Source: Candidatus Dojkabacteria bacterium (lineage in GTDB: Bacteria; Patescibacteriota; Dojkabacteria; SC72). From it: 64,000 bases of DNA. The translations under genes were made by a program, and so were the position numbers. The DNA is taken from contig JBMNHB010000001.1 of NCBI GenBank assembly GCA_050950145.1, positions 300,458-364,457 on the forward strand, in the 5' to 3' direction. The notes beneath the pieces were generated by a model. The model saw only the letters and a program-made list of their open reading frames with translations, did no database searches and had not been told where the DNA came from. This document shows, one piece after another, positions 4,820 through 63,632 of the stretch (position 1 is the first letter of the stretch; each line of letters opens with the position of its first letter).

Positions 4820-6583
4820 ATGGTAATATTGCATATGATCAATATTGATATGACTGCACCAAGGCAGAAACCAAGAGAAACAGTTGTAAGAAGACATACT
4901 GTTTCTAGAAATGGTTCTATGCAGAAGCAGAAAGGTAAAATAAAGGTTTTTAGGTTAATTCTTCTCTCTTTTCTTTTTTCAGCACTGTTTCTATTTTTTG
5001 AAAATAGGGATAATTTTCTTTATGCGGTAAGGTATCTATTTAATATAGGAAGAAGTGCAGTTGTATACGATACATATACAATATCTTTTGAAGATGATGT
5101 CCCTGAGGAATTTAAAAATTTGATGGTAGAAAATTTAAGTAAGGTGGTGTTTAATGAAAAACCTAGGTTTAAGTTTAAAGATGGTAGAAGTGATTTAGTG
5201 ATAGGGATGGAGGAGAAAGAAGGTAGCAAGGTGGTGTTTAGTCAGGACTTTATTCCAGTGGGGCATATGTATTCTCTTACAACAAACTTAACAGATGATG
5301 ATATTAAGAGTAAGAATCTGTACATGATTGATGGTAGATTGAAGGAGCAGATTCAGAGTCAGATTGATGCAGATATCACTGTGTTAGATGGGGGAATTGA
5401 TAGTTTGGTAGCTAAACTAAAAGAGAGTGATGATAATATTGGTTTATTGTCTTTTGATTCTTTGGATTACAGAGTTAAGATAATACCTTTTAATGAAAAG
5501 TATTACTTAGATGATCAGGAAGGCGCTGTTAAGTTTAGATTTTACTCTTCCGTAAAGCCAGAAGATGAATTAATTATCTCAATTATCGGTATCCATATGG
5601 GTTTTGGTGGTAGTGGTGTTATGCAAAAAAGTTTGTTGACAAAATTGAATATGGGAGGTGTTGTTGCTATTGCAAGGAATTTAGCATTTAAGATGGAAGC
5701 TGCAAAAGAAAATGATTATGCTGCTAAGTATATAGGGGATTTTTTGGCAGATGCTGATCTTACACATGTATCTAATGAGGTTTCTTTTGTACCTGGTTGT
5801 ACTCCAACAAGAAGTATGGCTTTTTGTTCTAATCCTAAATATATTGAGACTTTAAAGAAGAGTGGTGTGGATATTGTTGAGTTAACAGGTAATCATAATA
5901 ATGACTATGGAGCTAAGTATAGTGCGAGTACAATAGAGACATATAAAGAATTGGGTTGGGATTATTTTGGTGGTGGACTTGATTTAGAAGATGCAAGAAA
6001 GATTTTGTATAAGGAGGTAAATGGTACTAAGATAGCATTTCTTGGCTATAACTATTACGATAGTATATTAAATAATCCAGGGCCATTAGCTGGAACTAAT
6101 AAATCTGGAGCGAATCCTTACAGTGAGGAGAAACTTAAGAGGGATATAGAAGAGGCTAAGAAGAATGCAGATGTTGTAATTACAAGTTTTCAATTTCAAG
6201 AGTGTTACTGTTATCCTGATGGTGATGTTATTTTTCCTCCTTGTTATAAACCTGTTGCTGTTCCTGATCAAAGAGGTACATTTAAGAAAGCTATTGATCT
6301 AGGAGCAGATATTGTAGTAGGTACTCAGGCGCATCAACCTCAGACATATGAGTTGTATAAAGATGGGGTTATATTCTATGGTTTAGGCAATCTCTTCTTT
6401 GATCAATATATTTGGATAGGAACCAGACAGGGTCTTGTGCTTACACATTATTTCTATGAAGGTAAGTATATTCAAACGAAAGTAGTTCCCATATATATGG
6501 ATAAGGATTTTAGAGTAAGGCTTGCAACTAAAGAACAGGGTGATTTACTATTGAAATTATTAAAGGATGCTAGAGATAAGTAA
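4820..6583 (+). CDS. CapA/PgsA-family metallophosphatase-like capsule (poly-gamma-glutamate) biosynthesis protein with long N-terminal membrane-anchored extension
   Basis: The C-terminal 300 aa carry the PGA_cap pattern ('GNHNNDYG', 'DVVITSFQFQE', 'GADIVVGTQAHQPQ', 'GLGNLFFDQ'). The N-terminal ~290 aa are unassigned and contain a TM helix. Confidence 0.65.
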   Translation: MVILHMINIDMTAPRQKPRETVVRRHTVSRNGSMQKQKGKIKVFRLILLSFLFSALFLFFENRDNFLYAVRYLFNIGRSAVVYDTYTISFEDDVPEEFKNLMVENLSKVVFNEKPRFKFKDGRSDLVIGMEEKEGSKVVFSQDFIPVGHMYSLTTNLTDDDIKSKNLYMIDGRLKEQIQSQIDADITVLDGGIDSLVAKLKESDDNIGLLSFDSLDYRVKIIPFNEKYYLDDQEGAVKFRFYSSVKPEDELIISIIGIHMGFGGSGVMQKSLLTKLNMGGVVAIARNLAFKMEAAKENDYAAKYIGDFLADADLTHVSNEVSFVPGCTPTRSMAFCSNPKYIETLKKSGVDIVELTGNHNNDYGAKYSASTIETYKELGWDYFGGGLDLEDARKILYKEVNGTKIAFLGYNYYDSILNNPGPLAGTNKSGANPYSEEKLKRDIEEAKKNADVVITSFQFQECYCYPDGDVIFPPCYKPVAVPDQRGTFKKAIDLGADIVVGTQAHQPQTYELYKDGVIFYGLGNLFFDQYIWIGTRQGLVLTHYFYEGKYIQTKVVPIYMDKDFRVRLATKEQGDLLLKLLKDARDK

Positions 6584-6584
6584 G

Positions 6585-9194
6585 TTATTGTAGTACTTTT
6601 ATAAATACTCCACTTTGATTTCCGATTTTTAACTCTTCTCCATATATTTCATTTTTATCATTCTTTATTGTATATTCAAAAAGACTTTTACTATCTTGCC
6701 ACTGTCCTATCTGTTTTATCTTATTAAACTCTAGATTTTTTAATATTTCATATGATGTATATCCTTTGTTATCAAACAGATAGGAAGGAACTAGATTCCA
6801 TCCTGACAACTTTGATATATCCAGACTTGCTCCTCTATAGCCAGTTAAATTAAATTCTGCTTCTTGTAGCGATATAACCATATATGATTTGTTTGAATCT
6901 AGTTTAAAATCATTGCCATATATCTTTCCATCTTGATACTTTACAACTTGAATCCATTCTCCTGATTTGTATTCTCCAACAGCAATAGCTCTTTTATCTG
7001 ACATATTGATTAAATCGTATGCTGTTTTAGGATGTAGTGTCTGAGTAGTATCTAATACTTCTACTGGATTAATGAAGCTAACCCCCTTCTTAAGTTGATA
7101 TTTAGCATTTGTGTTCTTACAATTTGTAATTGGAATATCTTCTCTAAGTACTCCATTACAATCGGATGGCATTTTTACGGAGAGTTTATTATCTTCAAAA
7201 CAACATATTTTTTCTGTTTTTATGATTTTTTTATCTACAGTACATGTATATCCATGTTCAGCTTCTAATCTAGTTTTGTAATTATTTCCTTCTTTATCGT
7301 AGAGACATATACAACCGTTAGGGTCTTCACAGTATCTATCTTTATTAGTCACGACCATTTCATCTCTATTTCCATCAGGAGGGTTAGGATCTGGATTAGG
7401 TGTAGGACTAGGGCTAGGGCTAGGACTAGGCGTAGGTACAAGACTATCTCCACAACATTGATGCTTGTATTCACTAGACTTTTCTCCTGCAACCATTATG
7501 GTTTCATCGTTTAATAAACATGTTTGCCCTTTGTAGATATGGACATTATTTTTGTTATCGTAATAATTGCATGTGCATCCATCATCTGTGTTACATGTCC
7601 CTTCGGGTTTTAGTTTATTTAGTGTTATTGATCCCCTTGGACTTACTTTACATTTTTCACCACATAGTGAAAGTCTTTTGTAATTCTCAGGTTTATTATT
7701 TTCATCTCTTTTTTCAAAACAATCACACCCTCCACGATCAGTACATATCTCTCCTTCTATTATATCAGTATTACCACTTGGATCATCATTACAACCAGTA
7801 CTACTTCCAAGAACATTATTCTTTTCTATGTCATTGTTATCACAATTTTTATATATGGTATTCATCTTTTGATTAGAATGATCACATATATAACTACTAG
7901 ATCTTTCTATCTTAAAAGGAAATTCAATATTATTATAACCACTAGTACCATCAAGTAGTACATGTTTGTAATTTCTAAGAGTTTTTGAATAATACAACAA
8001 ACCAGAAACAAGATCTCTTTTAGAATTACATCCCTTTCCTTTTTTATCTCCTAATACAAACTTTGTAGCCCATTGAATATTTTTAAAGAGTTTGGAATTT
8101 TTATTAAGAGAAAACTCACTATTAATATCCTTATCAGAAATCCAATTCTCTATTCTATTAGGAGTAAAGGTATCTAATGTACAAGTATTAATATACTCTT
8201 CTTTTGCAACATTATTTAATAACCAATCTAATTGTCCTCTAAAATCAAAATAGATATTTGAGTTTTTAATTCCAAAATCTTTTAAGTTTTGTACTCCATC
8301 TTTATCAGCTTTTGCATAATTACTAGCACCTGTTTCCTGAAACCATATTGTTAATGGAAATGCGGGGTCTACACCTTTCTCCAAAGAAGTACAATATACA
8401 TCATCAAAACATTCATTTGCATAATTACCTTTTCTACAATTATTGGTATATATCCCATTTTCAGCTTTATCTACAAATGTTGCTTTGTCTATTGCAGTAT
8501 GATTGTAATTATTCACTTTTATATCAACCATACAGTTAGAACCAGTTTTTTCTCTTGCAGCATATATCTTAGGTGCAAGAATATTATGAATTAATGCAAC
8601 TAACTCTTCTTCTGTAGTAATCTGAGCATATTCTCTTTGTTTATATTCTTCTCCTTGATTATCAAATGCCCATGTTCCATGTTTTGCTGTGTCCAACATA
8701 ATATTATCTCCACTATCCAAAGACATTAAAACTAACTTATCAATATTAGTATCTCCAGTTACTATATTAGGAGTTATTACTTCTTCCTTTATCTCTTTTG
8801 TTTTAAAACTAAATTCTTTTTTCTCTATACCTTTAGCAGAATCAATTTTAAATATATATCTTGTATTTGGTTCTAGATTCTCAATTTTGGTAATGTATAG
8901 ATTAGAGTTAGATATATTATCCTTGTAAAGTAGTACATCATTAAATGCTTGTGTATATGGTCCTGTAAATGTTTCTTTTTTGTATGAAAGTATTTGGAAG
9001 TCTTCTTCCTTTACCTTCCAATATATCTGTGTACTATCAGTAGTAGTATTAGCAACAACAATATCAAATGGTGTTCTTAGAGATTTTTGATAATTAAAAT
9101 CACTTCTTAGTAGAAGTAATGATGCTCCTAGAGAGAGAAACACACCTAAAATAAATAGCATAAGTATGTTTTTCTTTTTGATAGGTTTTTCCAC
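6585..9194 (-). CDS. Large secreted multidomain protein: FN3-like N-domain, lysozyme/GH73-like middle domain, Cys-rich region, Pro/Thr/Ser linker, conserved C-terminal ~240-aa domain
   Basis: Signal/TM at N-terminus. 'PLTIWFQETGASNYA...DFGIKN' resembles the GH73 core. 'TPSPSPSPSPTPNPDPNPP' linker. The C-terminal 240 aa are ~98% identical to the downstream paralog 9232..11382. Confidence 0.6.
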   Translation of the reverse strand: MEKPIKKKNILMLFILGVFLSLGASLLLLRSDFNYQKSLRTPFDIVVANTTTDSTQIYWKVKEEDFQILSYKKETFTGPYTQAFNDVLLYKDNISNSNLYITKIENLEPNTRYIFKIDSAKGIEKKEFSFKTKEIKEEVITPNIVTGDTNIDKLVLMSLDSGDNIMLDTAKHGTWAFDNQGEEYKQREYAQITTEEELVALIHNILAPKIYAAREKTGSNCMVDIKVNNYNHTAIDKATFVDKAENGIYTNNCRKGNYANECFDDVYCTSLEKGVDPAFPLTIWFQETGASNYAKADKDGVQNLKDFGIKNSNIYFDFRGQLDWLLNNVAKEEYINTCTLDTFTPNRIENWISDKDINSEFSLNKNSKLFKNIQWATKFVLGDKKGKGCNSKRDLVSGLLYYSKTLRNYKHVLLDGTSGYNNIEFPFKIERSSSYICDHSNQKMNTIYKNCDNNDIEKNNVLGSSTGCNDDPSGNTDIIEGEICTDRGGCDCFEKRDENNKPENYKRLSLCGEKCKVSPRGSITLNKLKPEGTCNTDDGCTCNYYDNKNNVHIYKGQTCLLNDETIMVAGEKSSEYKHQCCGDSLVPTPSPSPSPSPTPNPDPNPPDGNRDEMVVTNKDRYCEDPNGCICLYDKEGNNYKTRLEAEHGYTCTVDKKIIKTEKICCFEDNKLSVKMPSDCNGVLREDIPITNCKNTNAKYQLKKGVSFINPVEVLDTTQTLHPKTAYDLINMSDKRAIAVGEYKSGEWIQVVKYQDGKIYGNDFKLDSNKSYMVISLQEAEFNLTGYRGASLDISKLSGWNLVPSYLFDNKGYTSYEILKNLEFNKIKQIGQWQDSKSLFEYTIKNDKNEIYGEELKIGNQSGVFIKVLQ
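6601..7316. repeat. Copy 1 of a ~716-bp near-identical direct repeat (3' ends of the two tandem paralogs)
   Basis: Direct base-by-base comparison with 9249..9963 shows only a handful of substitutions and one 1-bp indel. Identity decays gradually 5' of 7316 and 9963. Confidence 0.85.
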
Positions 9195-9231
9195 TATTAC
9201 ATAATATCAAATATATTTCTTGAATAGTAAT

Positions 9232-11382
9232 CTATTGTATTACCTTTATAAATATTCCATTCTGATTTCCGATTTTTAGCTCTTCTCCATATATTTCATT
9301 TTTATCATTCTTTATTGTATATTCAAAAAGACTTTTACTATCTTGCCACTGTCCTATCTGTTTTATCTTATTAAACTCTAGATTTTTTAATATTTCATAT
9401 GATGTATATCCTTTGTTATCAAACAGATAGGAAGGAACTAGATTCCATCCTGACAACTTTGATATATCCAGACTTGCTCCTCTATAGCCAATTAAATTAA
9501 ACTCTGCTCCTTGTAGCGATATAACCATATATGATTTGTTTGAATCTAATTCAAAATCATTGCCATATATTTTTCCATCTTGATACTTTACAACTTGAAT
9601 CCATTCTCCTGATTTGTATTCTCCAACAGCAATAGCTCTTTTATCTGACATATTGATTAAATCGTATGCTGTTTTAGGATGTAGTGTCTGAGTAGTATCT
9701 AATACTTCTACTGGATTAATGAAGCTAACCCCCTTCTTAAGTTGATATTTAGCATTTGTGTTCTTACAATTTGTAATTGGAATATCTTCTCTAAGTACTC
9801 CATTACAATCGGATGGCATTTTTACGGAGAGTTTATTATCTTCAAAACAACATATTTTTTCTGTTTTTATGATTTTTTTATCTACAGTACATGTATATCC
9901 ATGTTCAGCTTCTAATCTAGTTTTGTAATTATTTCCTTCTTTATCGTAGAGACATATACAACCATCATGATCTGCACAATATCTATCTTTATCAGTCACG
10001 ACCATTTCGTCTTTAATACCATCTCCTCCAGAAGGTATTGGTTTATCTGGGTCTGTTGGAGTGGAGTCTGTTGATTCTCCTGAGCATGTTCTATACTTTC
10101 TGTTTTGAGTTTCTTTAGATCTATCACATGAGTTTGCATTAGGTGGAATTCTCCATGGCCATTTGGGTAATTCTTTACCAGTCATCTGATAAAACATCCA
10201 CTCTAAGTATCCAATATACTCAACTCCAGCACCTATTCCATCGTTATCTTCTGTACATACATATCCTTTCCAGTATTTTGTTGCCCATATATGTTCTGGA
10301 CTATATTTTTTCTTAAGTATATCTATTTCTTGGTCTGATTTTTCACCTCTTCTTCTGCAAGCTTCCTCAAACCAATCATCTGCATATGACTCTATAGCAA
10401 CATTTTTAAGAAAATAATTAATTTGTGTAGTAAAATCATTCTTCCATTCTGCTACATGGATTCCAAAGTCTTCAACTACAGGGAATTGTGCATACATGCT
10501 AGCAGCAGATTCGTGCATCCAAACAGTTAATGATATTGCAGGATTAAGTCCAGCGTTTATTGATTTACAATAAGCATCAGCATAACATTCTCTTAAATAG
10601 TCTCCTTTACAATATGAAAAACGTTCTCCTTCTGTAAGTGCTAATGATTGTTCTAAGGTAGGTAGGTATCTAGTATCCTTTATTACAACATTCGTCATAC
10701 AATTAGCTCCTGTAGCTGCATACACATTGTTTTTTAGTGCAGTATTTAATTTTCTCTTTAATTCAAATTTTGGAATATATTGTGCATATTTAATTTCTTT
10801 GTAGGTTTTACCTTTTAAATCTAGTGCCCAGTTTCTGTTTTTGTTAGCAAAAACCATATACTTCTCTCCTTCGGCATCAATTAGAATAAAGTCACCAGGG
10901 TCAGAGCTTCCTGTTTCTATCTGTGGTAGTTTAACTTGTTCATTAATATTTTTAGTTATAAAAGTAAGATTATAATCCCATATGTGTTGTGGAGAATTAA
11001 TTCTAAATGTATATTCTGTATTCGGTTTTAGATTTGATATTGTTGATTTGTATAAGTCTTCTTCATCGGAAATATTTGTGTATATTCTAAAATCATTCTC
11101 ATACTTGTATGGAGCTGTACTTTCTTTTTCTTTGTATGTTAGAACTTCAATATTTTTAGTTTTGGTTTTCCAATATACTTCTGCTTGATTGGTTGAGATA
11201 TTAGCAACTATTATGTCATAGGGTTTTTCTTCTAAAATTTGAAATGTTTTTCTGTTTTGAACTATTAGATAAATATTAGCAATTACTAATAAAAGACCAA
11301 GGAGAAAGAAGTATATAATATTTTTTGATTTTCTAGTTTTTTTCATTTCTCTATGATACCAAATATATATTATCTTGTGCAC
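9232..11382 (-). CDS. Large secreted multidomain protein, tandem paralog of 6585..9194 (variable N-terminal and lysozyme-like domain, near-identical C-terminal domain)
   Basis: N-terminal TM. 'ISLTVWMHESAASMYA...DFGIH' lysozyme/GH73-like signature. C-terminal 240 aa near-identical to 6585..9194 at DNA level. The true start may be the internal Met (MKKTRK...). Confidence 0.6.
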   Translation of the reverse strand: MHKIIYIWYHREMKKTRKSKNIIYFFLLGLLLVIANIYLIVQNRKTFQILEEKPYDIIVANISTNQAEVYWKTKTKNIEVLTYKEKESTAPYKYENDFRIYTNISDEEDLYKSTISNLKPNTEYTFRINSPQHIWDYNLTFITKNINEQVKLPQIETGSSDPGDFILIDAEGEKYMVFANKNRNWALDLKGKTYKEIKYAQYIPKFELKRKLNTALKNNVYAATGANCMTNVVIKDTRYLPTLEQSLALTEGERFSYCKGDYLRECYADAYCKSINAGLNPAISLTVWMHESAASMYAQFPVVEDFGIHVAEWKNDFTTQINYFLKNVAIESYADDWFEEACRRRGEKSDQEIDILKKKYSPEHIWATKYWKGYVCTEDNDGIGAGVEYIGYLEWMFYQMTGKELPKWPWRIPPNANSCDRSKETQNRKYRTCSGESTDSTPTDPDKPIPSGGDGIKDEMVVTDKDRYCADHDGCICLYDKEGNNYKTRLEAEHGYTCTVDKKIIKTEKICCFEDNKLSVKMPSDCNGVLREDIPITNCKNTNAKYQLKKGVSFINPVEVLDTTQTLHPKTAYDLINMSDKRAIAVGEYKSGEWIQVVKYQDGKIYGNDFELDSNKSYMVISLQGAEFNLIGYRGASLDISKLSGWNLVPSYLFDNKGYTSYEILKNLEFNKIKQIGQWQDSKSLFEYTIKNDKNEIYGEELKIGNQNGIFIKVIQ
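9249..9963. repeat. Copy 2 of the ~716-bp near-identical direct repeat
   Basis: See 6601..7316. Offset between copies ~2648 bp. Confidence 0.85.
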
Positions 11383-17985: not shown

Positions 17986-19638
17986 ATGTCAAATGGAAAA
18001 CAAGAAGAAAATACAGGAATGAGTGGGTTTAACAATGTGCTTGATGTTAGACGATTTGTTACTTTAATTGTTTTGGATGGTTTTGGTGTATTTCCTGATG
18101 CTGAGGGAAATGCAGTATGGGCAGCTAAAACTCCCTTTCTAGACACAATATGGACACATGGGAGATCTACTCTTATACATGCAGCAGGTACTCATGTAGG
18201 TTTGCCAGGAGAAGACGCAGGTAATTCTGAGGTAGGACATTTGAATTTAGGTGCAGGTCAGGTGGTATATCAAACACTTCCTAGGATTAATGATGCAATT
18301 AGTGCTCATGAGTTGGATAATAATCCGGTTATTAAGCAGATGTTTTCATATCTTAGGAAAAGTAGAGGTAAACTTCATCTTACAGGAGTACTTAGTCCAG
18401 CAGGTGTACATGGACATATTAAACACCTTTTCTCTTTATTAGATCTCTGCGCTGTTAGTGGTATAGATCCATATATACATGTGATGTTGGATGGTAGAGA
18501 TACTCCTCCCAAAGAGGGACATCTGTATGTAGAGAAATTACAGGCAAAGATTAAGGAAATAGGGAAGGGTAAAATAGCTTCAATAATGGGTAGGTTTTAT
18601 GGTATGGATAGAGATAGTAGGTGGGAAAGAACCAAACTTGCATATGATGCAATGGTTGGTCTCTCTGAGGATACTTTTACTGATCCAGTAGAGGTTGTAC
18701 AGAGGGCTTACAATAAAGGAGAAGATGATCAGTTCTTCAAGCCACGGGTTTGTGTAGATGAAAACTTGAGACCAGTTGGTGCTGTTCAGAATAACGATGC
18801 TATACTTTTCTGGAATTTTAGAGAGGATAGGGCAAGGCAGTTGACAAAGGCTTTTGTCCTTAAAGATTTTCCTCACTTTGTAAGAAGAAATTTCCCAGAG
18901 AAACTATATTTTGCAACTATGACTGGTTATGAAGAGAATCTTCCAGCTAACGTTGTATTTCCACCTTTAAGGATTAAAAAATCTTTGTCGGAGTATCTGT
19001 CAGACAATGGTAAGAAACAGATTCATCTTTCAGAAACAGAGAAATATATGCATGTGACATACTTCTTTAATGGTGGTATTGAACAACCACATGAAGGAGA
19101 AACTTTCTTTAATATTCCATCAAAGAGAGTGGACAACTATGCCTCAGTCCCAGAAATGAGTGCATTAGTTATTACAGAAGAAACGATGAATAGGATAGCA
19201 AATATTGAAAAAAATCCTCTTGACTTTATTCTCCTTAACTTTGCAAATCCAGATATGTTAGGTCATACAGGTAATTTTAGAGCAACCATTAAGGGGAATG
19301 AAATAGTTGATGAGTGTTGTGCAAAGATAGGCAAGGCTACGATAGATGCAGGTGGTTGTTTAATTGTAACAGCAGATCATGGGAACTGCGAGACTATGAT
19401 TAATAGGGCAACAAAAGAGATAGATATTGCACATACTAATAATCCAGTTCCACTAGTCGTTGCAAACAGTTTGAATGAAATAACTCCTCATCAAGGTGTA
19501 CCACAGTTAAAGATTGGAACAGGTCCAAAAGCAAGGGCAACAGGAATTCTTGCAGATGTTGCTCCTACCGTATTAGGTCTTCTAGGGATGGATATTCCAT
19601 CAAGTATGACTGGGATAGACCTAAGGTCTGTTCTATAG
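17986..19638 (+). CDS. gpmI: 2,3-bisphosphoglycerate-independent phosphoglycerate mutase, copy 1
   Basis: 'LIVLDGFG', catalytic-Ser context 'NSEVGHLNLGAG', 'HLTGVLSPAGVHGHIKH', C-terminal 'ADHGNCE'. Confidence 0.85.
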   Translation: MSNGKQEENTGMSGFNNVLDVRRFVTLIVLDGFGVFPDAEGNAVWAAKTPFLDTIWTHGRSTLIHAAGTHVGLPGEDAGNSEVGHLNLGAGQVVYQTLPRINDAISAHELDNNPVIKQMFSYLRKSRGKLHLTGVLSPAGVHGHIKHLFSLLDLCAVSGIDPYIHVMLDGRDTPPKEGHLYVEKLQAKIKEIGKGKIASIMGRFYGMDRDSRWERTKLAYDAMVGLSEDTFTDPVEVVQRAYNKGEDDQFFKPRVCVDENLRPVGAVQNNDAILFWNFREDRARQLTKAFVLKDFPHFVRRNFPEKLYFATMTGYEENLPANVVFPPLRIKKSLSEYLSDNGKKQIHLSETEKYMHVTYFFNGGIEQPHEGETFFNIPSKRVDNYASVPEMSALVITEETMNRIANIEKNPLDFILLNFANPDMLGHTGNFRATIKGNEIVDECCAKIGKATIDAGGCLIVTADHGNCETMINRATKEIDIAHTNNPVPLVVANSLNEITPHQGVPQLKIGTGPKARATGILADVAPTVLGLLGMDIPSSMTGIDLRSVL

Positions 19639-46676: not shown

Positions 46677-47075
46677 TTACTTTCCAAACAACTGTTTTTT
46701 TACTTCCTCCCTATCTTTTTCTGTTAATATTTCAATACTACTTATCTGTTTTTCTTTAGAACTTTCAAAAATCTTCATAATTTCATTCGGATTATCATCA
46801 CCTGCTATCCTATTTGTACTTACAGCTCCACATTTTTCACATCTGTGGACAATCATAATTTCTCCAACTTTTTCGTTCCCATATTTATCAACTTTTCTCT
46901 TTTTAAATGTAAGTCCAATAGGAATCATCTTCCCTTGACACTTTGATTTCCTATCTCCAGGAATATTCTCATCTAAATGTTGTGAAAGAAGACAAAAAGG
47001 GCAGTGATTTCTGTTCTTTGTTCCGATATATCCATTCTCTTTAACTTCTTTTTTACAATTGAAACACTTAAACAT
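46677..47075 (-). CDS. RNHCP-domain zinc-ribbon protein
   Basis: 'CFNCKKEV...NRNHCPFC...HRCEKCG' matches the RNHCP domain. Overlaps the upstream helicase gene by 8 nt. Confidence 0.5.
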   Translation of the reverse strand: MFKCFNCKKEVKENGYIGTKNRNHCPFCLLSQHLDENIPGDRKSKCQGKMIPIGLTFKKRKVDKYGNEKVGEIMIVHRCEKCGAVSTNRIAGDDNPNEIMKIFESSKEKQISSIEILTEKDREEVKKQLFGK

Positions 47076-49317
47076 TAAATTTTTTTGAGAAATTATCTCC
47101 TTCTTTTGTTATTACACACAATCTATGAAGAGCCCTTGTAATAGCAACATAGAGAAGTTTTATTGAAAGTAAATCATCTTTGTAATAATCAGAATTAGCA
47201 TCAGCAATTATTACCGAATCAAATTCTAATCCTTTAGCATTTTCAATAGGTAATATTAACAATCCTGTTCTATAATCATTCTCACTGTAGTTTACAACAT
47301 CTCTGTTGATTTCATCTTCATATGGCTTAAAAATCTCATATAGTTCTCTTGCGTGTTCTCTATTTCTTGCTAAAAGTGCACAGGTAACAGACCCTTTTTC
47401 AAAATATTCCTTTATCATCTCAATAATCTCTTTTACATCATTTTTATCCATATTCACAATGTCTTTATCTTTTTGCATAATTCTTACTTCTTCACCATGT
47501 CTTAGTACTGCTTCTGGTAAATCATATGATTTTGGAAAGTATTCTTTAAATATTTTGTTTGCAAACTCTACAATTTCAACAGTAGTTCTGTAACATTTCT
47601 GTAGCTGATGATATGATGTATCCTTTTTTGTATTCTCTTTTACAACTTCAAAAACTTCATTCCATGACTTAATGTAAAAAGGAGGAATTATTGATTGCGC
47701 AAGGTCTCCAGCTATTGTCATATTCCCATTCTTTGCAATTTTGGAGAGTGTAGCAAGTTGTACAAAACTCATATCTTGAGCCTCATCAATCATTATGTAA
47801 GCTCTCTCATACAATTTACTACCATATACTTTTAAGTGTAGGTATACCATAGGAGCTAGATCTTCAATTCTGTATGTACGAATTCTTCCACTATGTTTTA
47901 TCCCTTCAAGTGTATATTTAGAAATATCTTTTGAAATATATTTAGATTTAAAAAGGTTTTTGTAAAGCTGGTATATATTAGTTTCTCTCCTAAAGTATGC
48001 AAGAATCTTAGCTTTTATCTCCTCAGTGTTTTCTGTTCTAAGCTTAATATCTCCTTCTTTATACTTGTTGAATTTTTTTTGAGCAAAAGCATATTCTGTT
48101 GCTAGTGACACTCTCTCTATCATATCAATATCACTATACTCTTCTTTGAGTTGATGATATCTATCAGCTATCACTTCTGCCATGCTGCTTGGAATATTTT
48201 CTAGTAGATTCTCTTCAAAATCGTGGAAGTATTTATCTAAAATTTTGATAAACTCTCTAGAACCTTTAAATTCTTTGAATTCTAAATTTTCTTCTTCTGT
48301 AGAAACTGTGTAGTAGTCATCCCATTCTAGAATTTTCTTTGCCCAGAAAAGATATGTTAGCGTTTCAACCTTTCTTACCCCTAAGTTAGGTAAAACATCA
48401 GACACATAATCTATGAACATTTGGTTAGGGGCTATGATTAAGGAATTTGTTTCGTTGATTCTCTTTGGGTATGTGTAGAAGAGATATGCCAATCTGTGTA
48501 AGAGAATTGTAGTCTTCCCACTACCAGCAACTCCTTGTATAACAACAGGGAAATTAATATCTTCTCGTATAATATTGTTTTGTTGAGCTTGAATTGTTGC
48601 AACAATATCTTGTAGCTTTTTACCGATTCTTTCTTGAAGTTGTACTAAGAGAAATTCGTCAGCAGCAACATTTCCAGATTTAGCATCATATATTCCTCTT
48701 ATTCTTGCTCTTGATATTTGGAATTGTCTTTTTTGAATTAACTCTCCTTTTCTTTCTCCAATAGGGGCAATAAATGAAACATTTTTCTTAGGTCCAGAGT
48801 TTTGATAGTAAATATTAGCAATAGGGGATCTCCAGTCTGTAATTAGAGGTAAATGTGTATCTGCTTCTACCATTGCAAATTTGCCGATATATAGGTTGAG
48901 TGGTATTTTAGTTCTAGAATCGTCTGGTAAGAAAGAAATTTTTCCAAAATATGGAGAGTCAAGTGCCAAAAGCTGATTGTTAATTCTTTCAACAGTTATC
49001 TCTATTTGAGCAAGAATTTTATTATAAATACTTCTAGCAGCTTTCCTTTCGTCGGCATCACTCTCTGCTTCTATTTCTGCTATCTGTCTTTCAAGTTCTT
49101 CTTCTAATCTTTTGAGGTTAGGTAATAGGAAATCTAATCTTTCTTTTGTAAGAAGAGAGACTTTTTGTAAATGTGGGTATTCCTCTTCTTCTAAGGAGTT
49201 TTCGTATACTATCTTGCTGAAATCTACTACCTCCTCTATATCCTTGTATAGAGGGTTTAGATGTTTCTCAAAGGTTTGCATTTCGTTTTTGGCAGAAATT
49301 ACCCGCTCAGTATACAA
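47068..49317 (-). CDS. UvrD/HelD-like superfamily 1 DNA helicase with N-terminal coiled-coil domain
   Basis: Walker A 'GVAGSGKTTILLHRLAYL', 'IMIDEAQD' motif II, C-terminal 'LLYVAITRALHRL' motif VI. ~200-aa coiled-coil N-terminus as in HelD-type helicases. Confidence 0.8.
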   Translation of the reverse strand: MYTERVISAKNEMQTFEKHLNPLYKDIEEVVDFSKIVYENSLEEEEYPHLQKVSLLTKERLDFLLPNLKRLEEELERQIAEIEAESDADERKAARSIYNKILAQIEITVERINNQLLALDSPYFGKISFLPDDSRTKIPLNLYIGKFAMVEADTHLPLITDWRSPIANIYYQNSGPKKNVSFIAPIGERKGELIQKRQFQISRARIRGIYDAKSGNVAADEFLLVQLQERIGKKLQDIVATIQAQQNNIIREDINFPVVIQGVAGSGKTTILLHRLAYLFYTYPKRINETNSLIIAPNQMFIDYVSDVLPNLGVRKVETLTYLFWAKKILEWDDYYTVSTEEENLEFKEFKGSREFIKILDKYFHDFEENLLENIPSSMAEVIADRYHQLKEEYSDIDMIERVSLATEYAFAQKKFNKYKEGDIKLRTENTEEIKAKILAYFRRETNIYQLYKNLFKSKYISKDISKYTLEGIKHSGRIRTYRIEDLAPMVYLHLKVYGSKLYERAYIMIDEAQDMSFVQLATLSKIAKNGNMTIAGDLAQSIIPPFYIKSWNEVFEVVKENTKKDTSYHQLQKCYRTTVEIVEFANKIFKEYFPKSYDLPEAVLRHGEEVRIMQKDKDIVNMDKNDVKEIIEMIKEYFEKGSVTCALLARNREHARELYEIFKPYEDEINRDVVNYSENDYRTGLLILPIENAKGLEFDSVIIADANSDYYKDDLLSIKLLYVAITRALHRLCVITKEGDNFSKKFNV

Positions 49318-49347: not shown

Positions 49348-49550
49348 AGGTCTGGCCTAGGTCTGCCCCATGTTAATCTATATTTAATCATCTATATTCC
49401 TTTCTTATATAAGTCTTTTTTGATAAAAATCTTTTTATTTTGTAAGAATTTTGGTCTAGGGAGACATAGGATATTGTAATTACTTAGTAGTAGGAGACCT
49501 TTTGGGTGGATTAAAAAGTTATGAATCAGGGGCAGACCTAGGCCAGGCCT
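49348..49550. mobile_element. MITE-like GC-rich element with ~22-bp terminal inverted repeats (copy 1)
   Basis: Left end aggtctggcctaggtctgccccatgttaa. Right end aaaagttatgaatcaggggcagacctaggccaggcct, which is its reverse complement at 19/20. AT-rich ~140-bp interior. Second copy at 61932..62137. Confidence 0.6.
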
Positions 49551-49575
49551 GGTGTGGTTGTGGTATGATGTAAAT

Positions 49576-50136
49576 ATGAGTGGACAGTTGAAATTTCTTT
49601 TGACTTTGGTTGTACTTGTTGGCCTCTTTCTCTTTTTACAAGAGAAGTTTAGTTTTTTGGATATCTCAATCACAGAAAATTCTTCTAAGGTAGAAGAACA
49701 GAAAGAAAATAATTCAAAGAAGGAAAGTAGTGAAGAAAAAAAAGACTATGTAGATATATATATGGAAGAAGGTAAGAGTGTAAAAGTTAATGTAGAAGTT
49801 GCTAATACTGAGATAGAAAGAAGGAATGGTCTCTCAAATAGACAATATCTAGGAGATTATGATGGAATGTGGTTTATCTTTGATGAAGATGTAAAGAATT
49901 CTTTTTGGATGAAAGATATGCTAATTCCTTTAGATATTATTTTTGTTGATTCTAGTGGTTTTATTGTGGATATAAAGGAGAATAATGCTTCTTGTACTGA
50001 TTCATATTGTCCCAACATAATTTCATCAACAAGTTATAGATATGTACTTGAAGTTAATGGAAATTTTTGTCAGGAGAATGGTGTAGAAGTAGGTCATAGT
50101 ATAACCGCACACATTAGTTCAGATAATCCTGTATAA
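49576..50136 (+). CDS. DUF192 (COG1430) secreted protein
   Basis: 'DYDGMWFIFDEDVKNSFWMKDMLIPLDIIFVDSSGFIV...YVLEVNGNF' matches DUF192. ATG at 49576 preferred over the track GTG at 49552, which lies inside the repeat element. Confidence 0.55.
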   Translation: MSGQLKFLLTLVVLVGLFLFLQEKFSFLDISITENSSKVEEQKENNSKKESSEEKKDYVDIYMEEGKSVKVNVEVANTEIERRNGLSNRQYLGDYDGMWFIFDEDVKNSFWMKDMLIPLDIIFVDSSGFIVDIKENNASCTDSYCPNIISSTSYRYVLEVNGNFCQENGVEVGHSITAHISSDNPV

Positions 50137-50144
50137 TAGTAGCT

Positions 50145-50804
50145 ATGATTAATTCATTAATAGATTGGTTAGTAAATTTAATTAACTCTGTTGGATATTG
50201 GGGTGTTGGTTTAGCAATGTTTATTGAAAGTTTTTTTGCTCCCATACCAAGTGAAATAATCCTTCCTTTTTCTGGTTTTGTAGCATCTCAAGGTACATTG
50301 AATATTGTTTTAGTGATAATAATCGCTACTTTTTCTGCATATCTTGGTTCCCTTCCTTTCTATTTAGTAGGTAGATGGGGAGAAAAGTCAGTAATGAAAT
50401 TTCTGAATAAATATGGGAAATATCTCTTTATATCTAAAACAGATCTGAATAAAGGATTTACTGCTTTTGAAAAGTATGGAAATGGAATTGTTTTACTTGG
50501 AAGAGTTATTCCAATTGTTCGTACAGTTATTTCTTTTCCTGCAGGTGTTGCAAAGATGAACTTCTTTGTTTTTTCTATGTATACACTAGTAGGTACTGCT
50601 ATTTGGTCAACCATACTAGCTCTTGCAGGATACTTTTTAGGTTCTAAATGGGAAATTGTTTCAGAATATGTTGCTAAGTATGAAAAAATTATATTAATAA
50701 TTTTAATACTAGTAGCTGTTTGGTATGTTGCTAGAGGTATTATTAATATGAGAAAAGATTCAACTAAACTAAAGGCAAAAGACTCTTCCCAGTCATCTCA
50801 CTAG
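50145..50804 (+). CDS. DedA/TVP38 family membrane protein, copy 2
   Basis: 'GYWGVGLAMFIESFFAPIPSEIILPFSGF' and 'LLGRVIPIVRTVISFPAGVAKMN' DedA motifs. Confidence 0.7.
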   Translation: MINSLIDWLVNLINSVGYWGVGLAMFIESFFAPIPSEIILPFSGFVASQGTLNIVLVIIIATFSAYLGSLPFYLVGRWGEKSVMKFLNKYGKYLFISKTDLNKGFTAFEKYGNGIVLLGRVIPIVRTVISFPAGVAKMNFFVFSMYTLVGTAIWSTILALAGYFLGSKWEIVSEYVAKYEKIILIILILVAVWYVARGIINMRKDSTKLKAKDSSQSSH

Positions 50805-52293
50805 GTTTACTAATTCCCATTATCTGCAGTATTGTTGGTGCAATATCTCTTAATGCTCCGTATGGAAGAAGTTGTGGTTTGTAATCACTTCCTACGATTA
50901 TAAATGGAACAGGGTTTATTGAATGTTCAGTATCCATACTACCATCATCAACATTTAACATCTCTTCTACATTCCCATGATCTGCTGTTATCACAACAAC
51001 ACCACCCAATGCAGTAAAACTATTTACTAATTCTTTGACACAGAAATCAACAATCTTAACTGCCTTAATTCCTGCTTCTAGGTTCCCAGTGTGTCCAACC
51101 ATGTCAGCATTTGCAAAATTAGCAACAATCAAATCATATGTTCGTCTCTGTATCCTATCAAGCAATATTGTTGTAATCTCTAATGCACTCATTTCTGGTT
51201 TTTGATCATATGTAGTAACCTTTGGAGAAGGAATAATAATACGATCTTCTTTATTATAGATAACGGGTGTTCCTCCGTTAAAGAAATATGTAACATGAGG
51301 GAATTTTTCTGTTTCTGCAATTCTTAACTGAGTTCTTTCTTCTGCATCAATAACATTACCAAGTGTAAGATTAATATATTGTTTTGGGAAAATAATTTTT
51401 TCAGGGAAGTTTTTCCTATATTCCACCATACTTGCAACAAAAAGATTAGGTATTTTTTTTCTAAAAAAACCAGTGAAATTATCAGAAATTAATGCCTCAG
51501 TTAATTGAATCATCCTATCTGATCTGAAATTCATTAAAATCACAACATCATTTTCTTTTATATTGCTCTTATTAATGACAGCAGGTTCTATAAACTCATC
51601 TGTTATGTTTTGTGAATAATTATGTTGTATAGCTGTATGACAATTGGGAAATTCTGCCCCCAAATTCTTTTCAAGAAGATAGTATGCTCTTTCAGTTCTG
51701 TCCCACTTATTATTCCTATCCATACCATAGAATCTACCGATGATAGTACCAATTTGACCCATCCCTCTATCCATACAATATTTATCAATATCAGCAAGGT
51801 AAGAAGCTGCTGCATTTACTGCAGTATCCCTTCCATCTGTAAATACATGAATAAATACTCTATTTGGGAAATTATATTTAGAGAAAAAGTCAATTACTGC
51901 TTTGAAATGATCAATATGAGAATGTACAGCACCATCACTAAGAAGACCTACAAGGTGAATATCTCCTCCATATTTGTGAGCATGAGCAAAAGCTTCCTTT
52001 AGTGTATTGTTTTGATAGATTAAACCTTTTTCAATTGAATTGTTTATTCTAGGTAGATTTTGGCTTACAGTTCTGCCTGCTCCAATGTTTAAATGACCCA
52101 CCTCACTATTACCTTTAATATTTTTTGGTAAACCGACATGTTCTCCTGAAGCGATTAAGTAGGTTCGTGGAGATGAGCTCCAAAGAGAGACAAGGGTTGT
52201 AGGATTGGCCTGTACAACAGCATTTCCAGGGCTAAGAGGTGCAGCTCCTAAACCATCTAAAATTAGTAACAAAACTTTCTTCTTTTTACTCAT
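50764..52293 (-). CDS. gpmI: 2,3-bisphosphoglycerate-independent phosphoglycerate mutase, divergent copy 2
   Basis: 'LILDGLG', 'NSEVGHLNIGAG', 'HLVGLLSDGAVHSHIDH', 'ADHGNVEEM'. About 45% identity to copy 1 by eye. Confidence 0.85.
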   Translation of the reverse strand: MSKKKKVLLLILDGLGAAPLSPGNAVVQANPTTLVSLWSSSPRTYLIASGEHVGLPKNIKGNSEVGHLNIGAGRTVSQNLPRINNSIEKGLIYQNNTLKEAFAHAHKYGGDIHLVGLLSDGAVHSHIDHFKAVIDFFSKYNFPNRVFIHVFTDGRDTAVNAAASYLADIDKYCMDRGMGQIGTIIGRFYGMDRNNKWDRTERAYYLLEKNLGAEFPNCHTAIQHNYSQNITDEFIEPAVINKSNIKENDVVILMNFRSDRMIQLTEALISDNFTGFFRKKIPNLFVASMVEYRKNFPEKIIFPKQYINLTLGNVIDAEERTQLRIAETEKFPHVTYFFNGGTPVIYNKEDRIIIPSPKVTTYDQKPEMSALEITTILLDRIQRRTYDLIVANFANADMVGHTGNLEAGIKAVKIVDFCVKELVNSFTALGGVVVITADHGNVEEMLNVDDGSMDTEHSINPVPFIIVGSDYKPQLLPYGALRDIAPTILQIMGISKPSEMTGKSLLPLV

Positions 52294-61931: not shown

Positions 61932-62137
61932 AGGTCTGACCTAGGTCTGCCCCATGTTAAGAAAATTTTAATCTCTAAGTTATGTACTTTCAAAAAGGTC
62001 TCCTAGTCCTCGGCTCAGGTAGTATGTACGTGTTACAAGTAAAAACAGAGGAACATGTACCCCAAAAAGGTATGTAAGAAGCAAAATTTCTCACATATTA
62101 AAAAGTTATGAATGAGGGGCAGGCCTAGGCCTGGCCT
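61932..62137. mobile_element. MITE-like GC-rich element with terminal inverted repeats (copy 2)
   Basis: Left end aggtctgacctaggtctgccccatgttaa. Right end aaaagttatgaatgaggggcaggcctaggcctggcct. Same TIRs and subterminal 'attaaaaagttatgaat' as copy 1. Interior diverged. Confidence 0.6.
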
Positions 62138-62153
62138 TGTAGTATAATTAGAC

Positions 62154-63632
62154 ATGAACATAAACCAAATAGACTTACTTCCTCTAAAGCCAGGAGTATA
62201 CAAATTCTATGACAAGAACAAAAAACTTTTGTATATAGGAAAAGCTCTTAATTTAAGAAACAGAATCAAATCATATTTTAATGACACACTCTATGACAGA
62301 CCGTATGTAAAGAAGATGATTCCTCTAATTGAAACAGTAGAAATAGTAGAAACAAATAATGAAATAGAATCGTTGGTATTGGAGGCAGCATTAATCAAAG
62401 AATTCAAACCTAAATATAATACTGATCTCAAAGACGACAAATCATATGCTTGGATATATGTATCTACAAAAGATGAATACCCTTTGATTAAAATAACAAG
62501 AAATGTATCAAGTAAGGAATTAAAAAAAGGAGAGCTCTTTGGTCCATATCCCAATATACACTCTGCCAGAAGAGTTTTCACATACCTTAGAAAACTCTAT
62601 CCTTTCTGTACATGCTCACCAGAAAGAGCAAAAAGAGAGAAAGAATGTATGTATTTTCATATTGGTCTTTGTCCAGGACCATATCAAGGACATATCACAA
62701 AAGAAGAATACAGAAGAAATATAACTGAAATACTTAAATTTCTTAAAGGTAGGAAACGAGGACAGATTGCTAAACTAGAATCTAAAATGAAACAATATTC
62801 TAAAGCAAAAGAATATGAAAAAGCTGGAGAATTAAGAGATAAAATTGAAGATCTTAAATACTTAGGAGAAAAGATAGATTTTGAGTATAACGAAAGTTCA
62901 GAATCTTATATAACAAGAAGGAAAAAACTACTACAATCTAATTTCCAAGAATTAAAAATAGAGTTAGGGTTGAAAAAACTAAACAGAATTGAATGCTATG
63001 ATATCTCTAATATACAAGGTAAAGAAGCGTATGGTTCAATGGTAGTTGCAGAAAAAGGAGAGATTAAAAGAAGTGAGTATAGGATTTTTAGAATAAAAAC
63101 TCTTGAGACTCCCAATGATACGCAGATGCTAAAAGAAGTCCTTTCTAGAAGATTTAATGAAAAGCAAAAAGAAAAATACAGTTCATATCCAGAGATTGTC
63201 CTAATAGACGGTGGTAAAGGACAACTATCTGTAGTAGAACCCTCTATTCCCAAAAATATCTATTTACTAGGTATTACAAAGGGAAGAAAATACAAAAGAA
63301 AAGGAGGCCATTTACTTGACGAATTTTGGTATATGAATAGAGGTAGTAAAAAGGTAGAGAAAATAAAGATTATCAATAAAGATGTACTAATAGATCTAAG
63401 AGATGAAGCGCATAGATTTGCTATTCTTCATCATAGAAAAGCAAGAGTTAGAGAGAGTAAAAAATCTGAATTAATTAAGATTAACGGAGTAGGAGAGAAG
63501 AGCAGGGTAAAACTTCTTAAAAACTTCAAATCGATTGAGAATATTAAAAAGGCTAATTTGGAAGATATTAATATGGTTTTGAACAATAAAAAGATAAGTA
63601 AGTTAGTTTACGAATATTTCAGAAAGAATTAA
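62154..63632 (+). CDS. uvrC: Excinuclease ABC subunit C
   Basis: GIY-YIG 'PGVYKFYDKNKKLLYIGKALNLRNRIKSYF', UvrBC domain, C-terminal RNase H-like and HhH regions. Confidence 0.9.
   Translation: MNINQIDLLPLKPGVYKFYDKNKKLLYIGKALNLRNRIKSYFNDTLYDRPYVKKMIPLIETVEIVETNNEIESLVLEAALIKEFKPKYNTDLKDDKSYAWIYVSTKDEYPLIKITRNVSSKELKKGELFGPYPNIHSARRVFTYLRKLYPFCTCSPERAKREKECMYFHIGLCPGPYQGHITKEEYRRNITEILKFLKGRKRGQIAKLESKMKQYSKAKEYEKAGELRDKIEDLKYLGEKIDFEYNESSESYITRRKKLLQSNFQELKIELGLKKLNRIECYDISNIQGKEAYGSMVVAEKGEIKRSEYRIFRIKTLETPNDTQMLKEVLSRRFNEKQKEKYSSYPEIVLIDGGKGQLSVVEPSIPKNIYLLGITKGRKYKRKGGHLLDEFWYMNRGSKKVEKIKIINKDVLIDLRDEAHRFAILHHRKARVRESKKSELIKINGVGEKSRVKLLKNFKSIENIKKANLEDINMVLNNKKISKLVYEYFRKN

Follow-up and report, generated by a model that had tools for sequence, protein, structure and literature searches.

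Results

Two short inverted-repeat elements lie in the window, the whole 64,000-nucleotide stretch of Candidatus Dojkabacteria DNA that was analyzed, and both are very likely non-autonomous, REPIN/MITE-like foldback partners of a RAYT-class Y1 HUH transposase and members of a repeat family of these bacteria. The elements form a family, a cognate gene lies between identical ends at other loci, the arms co-vary with the protein, and short elements and transposase units exchange cargo at the same sites. A preliminary description of the first copy had offered a non-autonomous MITE, a structured RNA or DNA site and a recombination site as possible identities, and the first of these was supported by the further copies and by the cognate transposase with the same ends. 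The elements are short, non-coding and multi-copy and have TIRs in common with an autonomous element, as generic MITEs do; "REPIN or TIR doublet of a RAYT system" is the more precise label.

Structure and surroundings of copy 1

Copy 1 occupies positions 49348-49550 of the window (203 bp), carries inverted 22-nt arms at both ends and belongs to sub-family A. The left arm (49348..49369, plus strand; AGGTCTGGCCTAGGTCTGCCCC) consists of two tandem 11-nt units, AGGTCTGnCCn, with a CCTAGG core. The right arm (49529..49550, plus strand; GGGGCAGACCTAGGCCAGGCCT) is the left arm in reverse complement, apart from a single T.G mismatch over the 22 nt in a sequence comparison within the window. A 10-nt palindrome, GRCCTAGGYC, lies within the arms. 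At up to 3 mismatches the arm was matched four times in the window, compared to 0.00 matches expected from 100 dinucleotide shuffles, and the terminal inverted repeats of about 22 bp that had been reported for this copy were confirmed at their positions. The CCTAGG core and the direct repeat noted earlier in the arms are likewise real, the repeat being the 11-nt AGGTCTGnCCn unit of each arm.

Inside the arms, the left subterminal segment (49370..49389, plus strand; ATGTTAATCTATATTTAATC) and the right one (49509..49528, plus strand; GATTAAAAAGTTATGAATCA) form an imperfect inverted repeat, the right one being delimited by repeat comparison and alignments, and the inverted complementarity of the two ends of copy 1 reaches 42 nt at 79%. 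The conservation of these subterminal motifs, which had also been pointed out, was borne out between the two copies in the window over 42 nt on the left (86% identity) and 44 nt on the right (91%). The spacer (49390..49508, plus strand) is of the sub-family A type and is AT-rich, as first described, with 25% GC. The accompanying claim of a GC-rich island held for the arms, in which 31 of 44 positions are G or C, but not for the whole element, which has 35% GC compared to 32.4% for the window. No coding remnant of a transposase was found in the copy 1 spacer by tblastn, and no conserved internal RNA structure was found in it. Folding of the element had been proposed as a check, and both copies were far more stable than their shuffles (z = -5.4 for copy 1 and -4.1 for copy 2), with a long hairpin in both.

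The genes on either side of copy 1, a UvrD-like superfamily-1 helicase (47068..49317, minus strand) and a DUF192 gene (49576..50136, plus strand), were confirmed as first named. The helicase gene is divergent from the element and is context, not part of it. The GTG start of the DUF192 ORF had been placed inside the right TIR; this codon, at 49552, lies two bases beyond the arm. The DUF192 gene probably starts instead at the ATG at 49576, 26 nt beyond the right arm, since in the orthologous locus L092 this conserved ATG is preceded by an in-frame TAG. A likely start-codon mis-call is thus flagged for this gene. A -10-like sequence, TATGAT (49564-49569), lies between the right arm and this ATG. 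When the divergent helicase/DUF192 junction was checked as a replication origin, the GC skew merely tracked the gene strand.

Copy 2 and a family of short elements

Copy 2 (61932..62137, plus strand; 206 bp) lies between the stop codon of dnaE at 61922 and the start of uvrC at 62154. Its arms (61932-61953 and 62116-62137) have 1 and 3 mismatches, and the element belongs to sub-family B. The two copies share about 42 nt at the left end and about 44 nt at the right, and their interiors of about 120 nt cannot be aligned; judged by sequence, they are members of two different sub-families. An interior segment of copy 1 had been described as inverted relative to copy 2. The 12-nt stretch aggagacctttt (49492-49503) is indeed found in reverse-complement form in copy 2 (61993-62004), and the interiors otherwise showed no alignable relation. 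The somewhat longer motif TAGGAGACCTTTTG in the copy 1 spacer (49490-49503) is present as the reverse complement beside the left end in sub-family B. It belongs to an arm extended to some 75 nt, adjoining the right end in elements of sub-family A and the left end in those of sub-family B.

When one genome per species was scanned for the exact pattern, 22 loci were returned, 20 of them from four Candidatus Dojkabacteria MAGs and one MAG labelled Saccharibacteria, the contigs of which match the window at about 90% identity; the remaining two, from high-GC genomes, lacked a partner arm. Scanning of metagenomes contributed 57 more loci, and L023-L095 came from anaerobic-digester or fermentation metagenomes. 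When arms were paired at up to 6 mismatches, 84 paired elements were obtained, of which 60 measured 202-209 bp and 21 measured 548-608 bp, two sharply separated size classes. All of the approximately 60 short elements were located in AT-rich loci. High-GC matches from Actinomycetota, Vicinamibacterales and soil contigs (L008, L013, L043, L062, L064 and L069) had no partner arm and were set aside. Most of the high-GC matches outside the family are tandem 11-nt GC-rich repeats. The arm sequence had no match in viral contigs.

Among the short elements, 37 belong to sub-family B, including copy 2, and 16 to sub-family A, including copy 1, and there are four minor types. The spacers are variable, with two main sub-families, and the length of the short elements is nevertheless tight at 202-209 bp. 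The left arm is nearly invariant across the short elements and the transposase-bearing units, in part an ascertainment effect, as the DNA scans demanded one arm that matched the pattern exactly. The arms of sub-family B differ in sequence variant, with a left type (AGGTCTGRCCTAGGTCTGCCCC) and a right type (AAGGYCAGRCCTAGGTCAGGCCT), which resemble what we take to be the Y/Z REP pairing of E. coli BIMEs, although BIMEs are alternating Y/Z REP mosaics of unrelated sequence.

Further copies had been suggested as the first thing to look for, and about 60 short copies were found at at least 14 distinct intergenic sites across the clade, with 2 copies in the 64-kb window and 4-8 per MAG when one exact arm was required. 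The number of copies seen per genome is low, at roughly ten distinct sites. All copies are intergenic; in a few, an arm overlaps the end of a neighboring ORF by a few bases.

A RAYT-class transposase between the same arms

The earlier statement that the window holds no transposase was upheld: neither tblastn nor a search of the six-frame translation with a family HMM detected a transposase gene in the 64 kb. A cognate transposase with the same TIRs had been named as the observation that would confirm a MITE, and such a gene, encoding a Y1 HUH protein of about 150 amino acids and RAYT type, was found in 21 loci. In these loci arms and subterminal motifs like those of the short elements flank a unit of 548-608 bp. 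In related genomes the arms and the gene they enclose make up 548-557 bp. Every long unit examined contained one ORF, of about 150-160 amino acids, between the arms, and in L015, L019 and L023 a left subterminal segment of the ATGTTAATCTATATTTAATC type separates the arm from the transposase start codon.

The proteins of the long units match Pfam Y1_Tnp (PF01797) at 35-47 bits, compared to a cut-off of 23. Their only meaningful NCBIfam match is REP_Tyr_transpos, at 36-47 bits, which is below the equivalog cut-off of 80. More than 5,000 database proteins match the transposase at E <= 1e-5, and several of these carry the JGI name "REP element-mobilizing transposase RayT". The HUH histidines H62 and H64 and the residues of Y123-x3-N127-P128 do not vary across 27 aligned homologues. 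A PDB search with a single transposase sequence gave spurious ankyrin matches only, and a profile was needed. The 27-sequence profile matched E. coli TnpA-REP (4ER8) over its full length (E = 3.4e-6), and ISDra2 TnpA (2XM3) was matched in part (E = 0.015). An AlphaFold model of the transposase had a mean pLDDT of 89.5, and Foldseek placed 4ER8 at the top of the PDB entries for this model (TM 0.71, rmsd 2.7 A), with the TnpA proteins of IS608, ISDra2 and IS200 as runners-up at TM 0.52-0.57, those of IS608 and ISDra2 being at 0.54-0.57. Sequence and predicted structure alike assign the transposase to the RAYT class.

The arms and the protein diverged together. In homologues at 69, 52, 49 and 43% identity the inverted arms had diverged correspondingly (examples are AGGTCTGACCTAGGTTTGCCCC, AGGTCTGACCTAAGTCTGTCC, AGGCCTGGCTATAGCCTGGCC and AGGCCTGGCCTAGATCCGACC), and this co-variation is expected if the protein recognizes the arms. 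P0001, which is 97% identical to the transposase of the closest relative of the window, lay at the MutS|PPDK site in all six places shown, of 11 contigs read, and arms flanked it in each. The fetched loci held one transposase unit per MAG (L004, L015 and L019), and the site of the unit differs among lineages, being MutS|PPDK, rsmD|spoU or mazG|ybaB.

Shared sites and exchange of cargo

Orthologous intergenic sites hold elements although the flanks of the genomes are only 73-80% identical. These shared sites include dnaE|uvrC, helicase|DUF192, positions downstream of a tRNA gene and upstream of tuf, and rsmD|spoU. The dnaE|uvrC position also holds an element in L039, L092 and L018, and an element upstream of uvrC with the right flank of copy 2 was present in L007 and L010. 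Two sites hold either a short element or a transposase unit. At rsmD|spoU, where the flanks are 77-80% identical, the transposase unit is present in two lineages (L019 and L038) and a sub-family B short element in eight others. At mazG|ybaB the transposase unit is present in JAGPFQ01 (L004), and contigs with 93%-identical flanks carry a 197-bp sub-family B element; the junctions are identical in both states (GAATATT|AGG... and ...CCT|GTTAGTGGAA).

The within-genome paralogues L001, L003 and L007 have 83-88% interior identity, compared to 75% for the orthologous pair of copy 2 and L007. When both flanks of every element were compared with every locus and with the window, no empty site was found, and all comparable orthologous sites were filled. 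Comparisons of orthologous sites likewise gave no excision product and no strain-specific new insertion, only cargo exchange and adjacent indels. Indels next to an arm include the loss of a mazG-like gene in L070. In L092 an extra segment of about 500 bp, possibly with a small ORF, lies by the arm. Target-site duplications had been proposed as a further mark of insertion; the 37 non-redundant copies lacked flanking direct repeats in every case, which is expected for HUH Y1 elements. The flanks show a weak CAAC...GTTG preference. We infer that the elements are mobile; present or recent activity of the family is suggested by the number of copies, by the exchange of cargo and by the similarity of copies within one genome.

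These data also bear on a different reading, in which the unit of about 550 bp is a minimal, still active insertion sequence of the IS200/IS605 type and the 205-bp elements arose from it by deletion as ordinary MITEs (palindrome-associated transposable elements), with no domesticated RAYT/REPIN system involved. The transposase unit occurs at three sites in different lineages, and at one of them its junctions are identical to those of the short element in a close relative; therefore the whole unit appears to move or to be exchanged. The HUH/Tyr Y1 fold predicted for the protein is common to the IS608 and ISDra2 TnpA proteins, and the lack of target-site duplications, the short non-autonomous derivatives and, by analogy, a single-strand "peel and paste" chemistry would be further likenesses to IS200/IS605 elements. 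Those elements, however, occur in multiple copies and are often horizontally transferred, whereas one unit per genome was seen in the fetched loci, and its site was constant in the six places shown for P0001. The ends of the Dojkabacteria elements are inverted repeats and not the non-identical subterminal left-end and right-end hairpins of IS200/IS605 elements. Profile and predicted structure both place E. coli TnpA-REP above every IS200/IS605 TnpA as a match to the protein, and the active-site motif in the 27-homologue alignment is Y-x3-N-P, which we take to be the RAYT type, the IS608 motif presumably being Y-x3-Q. The short elements, moreover, share with the long unit only about 42 nt per end and are therefore not simple internal deletions; a tblastn search of all short elements and the window for internal-deletion derivatives returned nothing past the terminal 15 or so codons. 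Taken with this evidence, an IS200/IS605-type element is an unlikely description of the family.

Strand structure and possible effects on neighboring genes

Single arms fold weakly alone, at -1 to -2.5 kcal/mol as DNA. The elements behave as TIR foldbacks and not as classic self-folding REPs, because single arms are poor hairpins on their own. RNAalifold recovered the terminal stem only, with a covariation term of about zero, in alignments of 18 mixed and of 25 sub-family B elements. In the sub-family B stem there were 42 G.U/T.G wobble cells compared to 2 C.A cells on the strand that reads CCCC-GTTAAG; the excess arises because the right arm is a different variant of the AAGGYCAGRCCTAGGTCAGGCCT type and the left arm is nearly invariant. 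The wobble-bearing strand folded slightly better as single-stranded DNA in 29 of 37 non-redundant elements, the sequences of which are related to one another. This bias gives a weak hint of strand-specific recognition of single strands, as is known for HUH enzymes.

On another view the host has adopted the elements as intergenic punctuation, and it is this role, and not transposition, that would account for their retention; a transcription barrier, a protector of RNA 3' ends or RNase III site, or a promoter-proximal insulator would be provided by the GC-rich stem of 22 bp or by four 11-bp protein-binding units in phase. Several of the observations above are compatible with this: elements persist at orthologous sites with flanks 73-80% identical, their length is constrained to 202-209 bp though the spacers cannot be aligned, and the one-sided wobble count and the better folding of that strand in 29 of 37 elements point the same way. 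In addition, a TAtAAT-like box with a nearby ATG often follows the end of the right arm at a distance of 5-15 nt. E. coli REPs have been described with such secondary roles (PMC3733652). The arms nevertheless diverge with the transposase and not with the host genes. No terminator-like site and no U-tract was found around either copy, and promoter-like hits around both were at chance level. The orientation of the elements to neighboring genes is also inconsistent, with about 15 of 20 co-oriented. We regard host punctuation as an improbable account of the family as a whole. A secondary role as a transcript boundary or RNA stabilizer is possible, and the conserved positions, the constant length and the placement of the right arm just upstream of -10-like boxes are signs of it.

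A structured regulatory RNA had been among the identities first proposed, and it could take the form of a non-coding RNA gene or of a cis-regulatory RNA with a long P1-like closing stem. The fold z-scores of both copies and the wobble pairs, which are compatible with RNA on one strand, would agree with such a reading. Rfam, by contrast, returned tRNAs only for the whole window at the gathering threshold, and for the two elements at E <= 10 only sub-threshold miRNA and snoRNA noise. RNAalifold supported no interior covariation in its terminal-stem consensus, the interiors of the sub-families cannot be aligned, and other loci have a protein-coding gene between the same ends. A structured RNA is accordingly very doubtful.

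The recombination-site proposal, in the form of a promoter switch (inverton) that a recombinase would flip at the inverted repeats, could point to inverted repeats around about 160 bp in promoter regions and to the one 12-14-nt motif inverted between copies 1 and 2, but it is scarcely credible, as an inverted interior was seen in none of 208 pairs of elements that occupy one site in different samples or genomes, forward and reverse-complement alignments of sub-family A and B interiors scored equally low, extended-arm homology in the two sub-families explains the shared motif, and the elements are associated with a Y1 transposase and not an invertase.

Discussion

A working model for the elements as RAYT partners can be proposed by analogy with E. 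coli TnpA-REP and IS608. Two inverted 22-nt arms, about 42 nt with the subterminal motifs, enclose a fast-evolving AT-rich spacer of about 120 nt. A transposase encoded elsewhere in the genome would act in trans and recognize the arms on single-stranded DNA, for example on the lagging-strand template, and its HUH/Tyr active site would cut and rejoin at the feet of the arms. The segment between two arms would be copied or exchanged in this way with no target-site duplication made, and the elements would settle in intergenic DNA, followed by long vertical inheritance. The uniformity of arms within a genome could result from recognition by the transposase of that genome or from gene conversion. 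Effects on neighboring genes, such as the blocking of transcripts or the stabilizing of RNA 3' ends by the 22-bp GC-rich stem, would be secondary.

Several observations sit less easily with this interpretation of the copies as RAYT partners. No empty site, excision product or new insertion was seen among the comparable orthologous sites. The cognate gene is absent from the window, and the genome from which the window derives would have to encode the transposase at another place, as we suppose it does. The NCBIfam RAYT score falls short of the equivalog cut-off. The elements lack the 5' GTAG guide tetranucleotide that is canonical for REPs, and the flanks show only the weak CAAC...GTTG preference. 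Single arms, as noted above, make weak folds, and the roughly ten sites seen per genome compare with hundreds in classical REPIN hosts.

REPIN-RAYT systems consist of two inverted REPs with a variable spacer, usually about 100 bp in all and extragenic, and a single-copy transposase gene at a fixed site (bioRxiv 10.1101/2021.07.10.451892; PMC5581495), and they are known from Pseudomonas and Enterobacteria (Bertels & Rainey 2011, PMC3116915, PMC3337134). The Dojkabacteria elements are similarly composed of two inverted, partly self-palindromic repeats and a variable spacer, are extragenic and form one long hairpin. As in those systems, the Y1 HUH transposase gene has the repeats of the short elements on both sides, and the elements persist for long at orthologous sites with a repeat that co-varies with the transposase. 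In the fetched loci one such gene was seen per genome, with a constant site in the six places shown for P0001. In contrast to REPINs, the elements are about 205 bp and not about 100 bp in length and were seen in tens and not hundreds of copies, and the arms, unlike REPs, lack GTAG and are poor hairpins alone. The host also differs, being a CPR bacterium of approximately 32% GC (MAG contigs of up to 645 kb were seen), as does the presence of the transposase unit at different element sites in different lineages.

A second group of relatives is formed by the TIRtrons or TIRYTs, RAYT-like genes flanked by long TIRs, some of which are self-complementary and some of which form moderately abundant families (Di Nocera et al. 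2013, PMC3733652); the TIRYTs correspond to subclass 2.1 of Quentin et al. 2018 (PMC6006769). Published cases come from Proteobacteria, Acidobacteria and other phyla, not from Patescibacteria (PMC3733652, PMC6006769). Like TIRtrons, the Dojkabacteria units encode a RAYT-like Y1 protein flanked by long, partly self-complementary TIRs and not by GTAG-tagged REPs, and the TIR family is moderately abundant, dispersed and organized as dimers. The arm also has a G-run beside the gene (GGGGCAGAC). The published GGGGWSAS motif of TIRYTs is not exactly matched, the Dojkabacteria arm reading GGGGCAGA, and the protein differs from subclass 2.1 in having 151-158 amino acids, the core domain only, and no C-terminal HTH. 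The family has the architecture by which both REPIN-RAYT systems and TIRtrons/TIRYTs are defined.

A bolder view, which we put forward only as a speculation with the odds against it, is that in the streamlined CPR genomes considered here the RAYT/foldback system is a long-lived, vertically inherited intergenic module on which the host depends. The arms would be kept at gene boundaries across genera (dnaE|uvrC, helicase|DUF192, tRNA|gene and upstream of tuf), the element length would stay at about 205 bp, the only moves of the transposase gene would be swaps into existing element sites, and the foldbacks could serve as transcript boundaries by promoters immediately upstream of a start codon. 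If this is true, relocation would proceed by cassette exchange, which has not been described in REPIN-RAYT systems.

Discussion of RAYT/REPIN systems treats them as ancient replicators that are inherited vertically, and nearly all work on them has concerned Proteobacteria; none of the RAYT/REPIN papers listed in the literature searched mentions Patescibacteria. The mechanism suggested here is an ordinary one, and it is the host, the compactness and the same-site exchange that are noteworthy. The conspicuous GC-rich inverted repeats in Dojkabacteria MAGs would be explained, and the system widens the phylogenetic range of RAYTs to a host in which hardly any spare DNA would be expected. It is compact, with a transposase of about 150 amino acids, units of about 550 bp, partners of about 205 bp and roughly ten sites per genome. 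With few copies, two spacer families and an exchange of units and short elements at the same sites, it may serve as a minimal model for how RAYTs move their partners.

Alternative arrangements at orthologous element sites

Loci matching the arm pattern were drawn from genome and metagenome scans, and orthologous sites among them were compared. At a single site in contigs of ~93% identity (compared segments L063:5440-6140, L070:1480-1820 and L004:1840-2520), three alternative arrangements were found. The first is the transposase unit, the second is a short element of 197 bp whose right arm is truncated, and the third is a 207-bp element in which the adjoining mazG-like gene, of ~370 bp, is missing. 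The site between the helicase and DUF192 genes was also recovered in an orthologous contig (L092:13760-14560), where the stretch separating the element from the helicase gene is ~500 bp longer than in the window; this extra segment is possibly a small ORF.

In one transposase sub-clade (L019 and L038), the proteins are 158 aa long and have C-termini of ...NEGQT or ...KEGKT. Their reading frame enters the right arm (L019:2809-2830; L038:3465-3486) and the stop codon is the TAG within the CCTAGG core, so that the C-terminus of the protein is encoded by the arm itself.

Neighboring genes, solitary arms and other repeats

DNA replication or repair genes, namely those for a UvrD-like helicase, dnaE and uvrC, and mutS, adjoin several element sites (both window copies, 49348-49550 and 61932-62137, and loci L015 and L019). 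With ~14 sites, this association may be due to chance. Occurrences of REPs inside replication and repair genes have been noted (PMC3733652).

An exact left arm was found alone at L014:1464-1485 and L054:7990-8011, with no recognizable partner arm within 260 nt, and may represent a solo remnant. These solitary arms lie upstream of a putative aminoacyl-tRNA synthetase gene. The arm pattern was also matched in high-GC contigs of soil bacteria (Vicinamibacterales and others) by tandem 11-nt AGGCCTGNCCY repeats (L013:7170-7213; L043, L062 and L064), which have the same period and the same unit as the Dojkabacteria arm. This likeness may be a coincidence, or the repeats may be of a distantly related type.

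Further repeats were identified in the window. A 300-nt direct repeat of 96% identity (6579-6878 and 9226-9525) lies within two large neighboring ORFs on the minus strand (6585-9194 and 9232-11382); gene conversion between tandem paralogues is the probable explanation. Between 18552-19385 and 50972-51775, several matches in inverted orientation, 35-93 nt long and 75-80% identical, join a 550-aa ORF (17986-19638, plus strand) to a 509-aa ORF (50764-52293, minus strand). The latter is designated Metalloenzyme/iPGM_N in public gene calls, and the two look like divergent phosphoglycerate mutase-type paralogues.

Start codons and promoter-like boxes beside the elements

Both the ORF list and public gene calls, the latter giving 194 aa, start DUF192 at the GTG at 49552. 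Translation probably begins instead at a conserved ATG (49576), because the orthologous locus L092 carries an in-frame TAG upstream of that ATG. Within this start region (49552-49578), the ATG is preceded at 6 nt by a TATGAT box, so placed as to suggest a leader that is very short or absent.

A TAtAAT-like box is often found no more than 5-15 nt past the right arm, with an ATG no more than ~5-10 nt further on, in many elements (among them window 62138-62156, L001, L007, L018 and L022; for example TGTAGTATAATTAGACATG, TGTGGTAAAATATG and CTGTATAATCAATCATG). This arrangement suggests either that these genomes set promoters directly before start codons or that this is a favored position for the elements.
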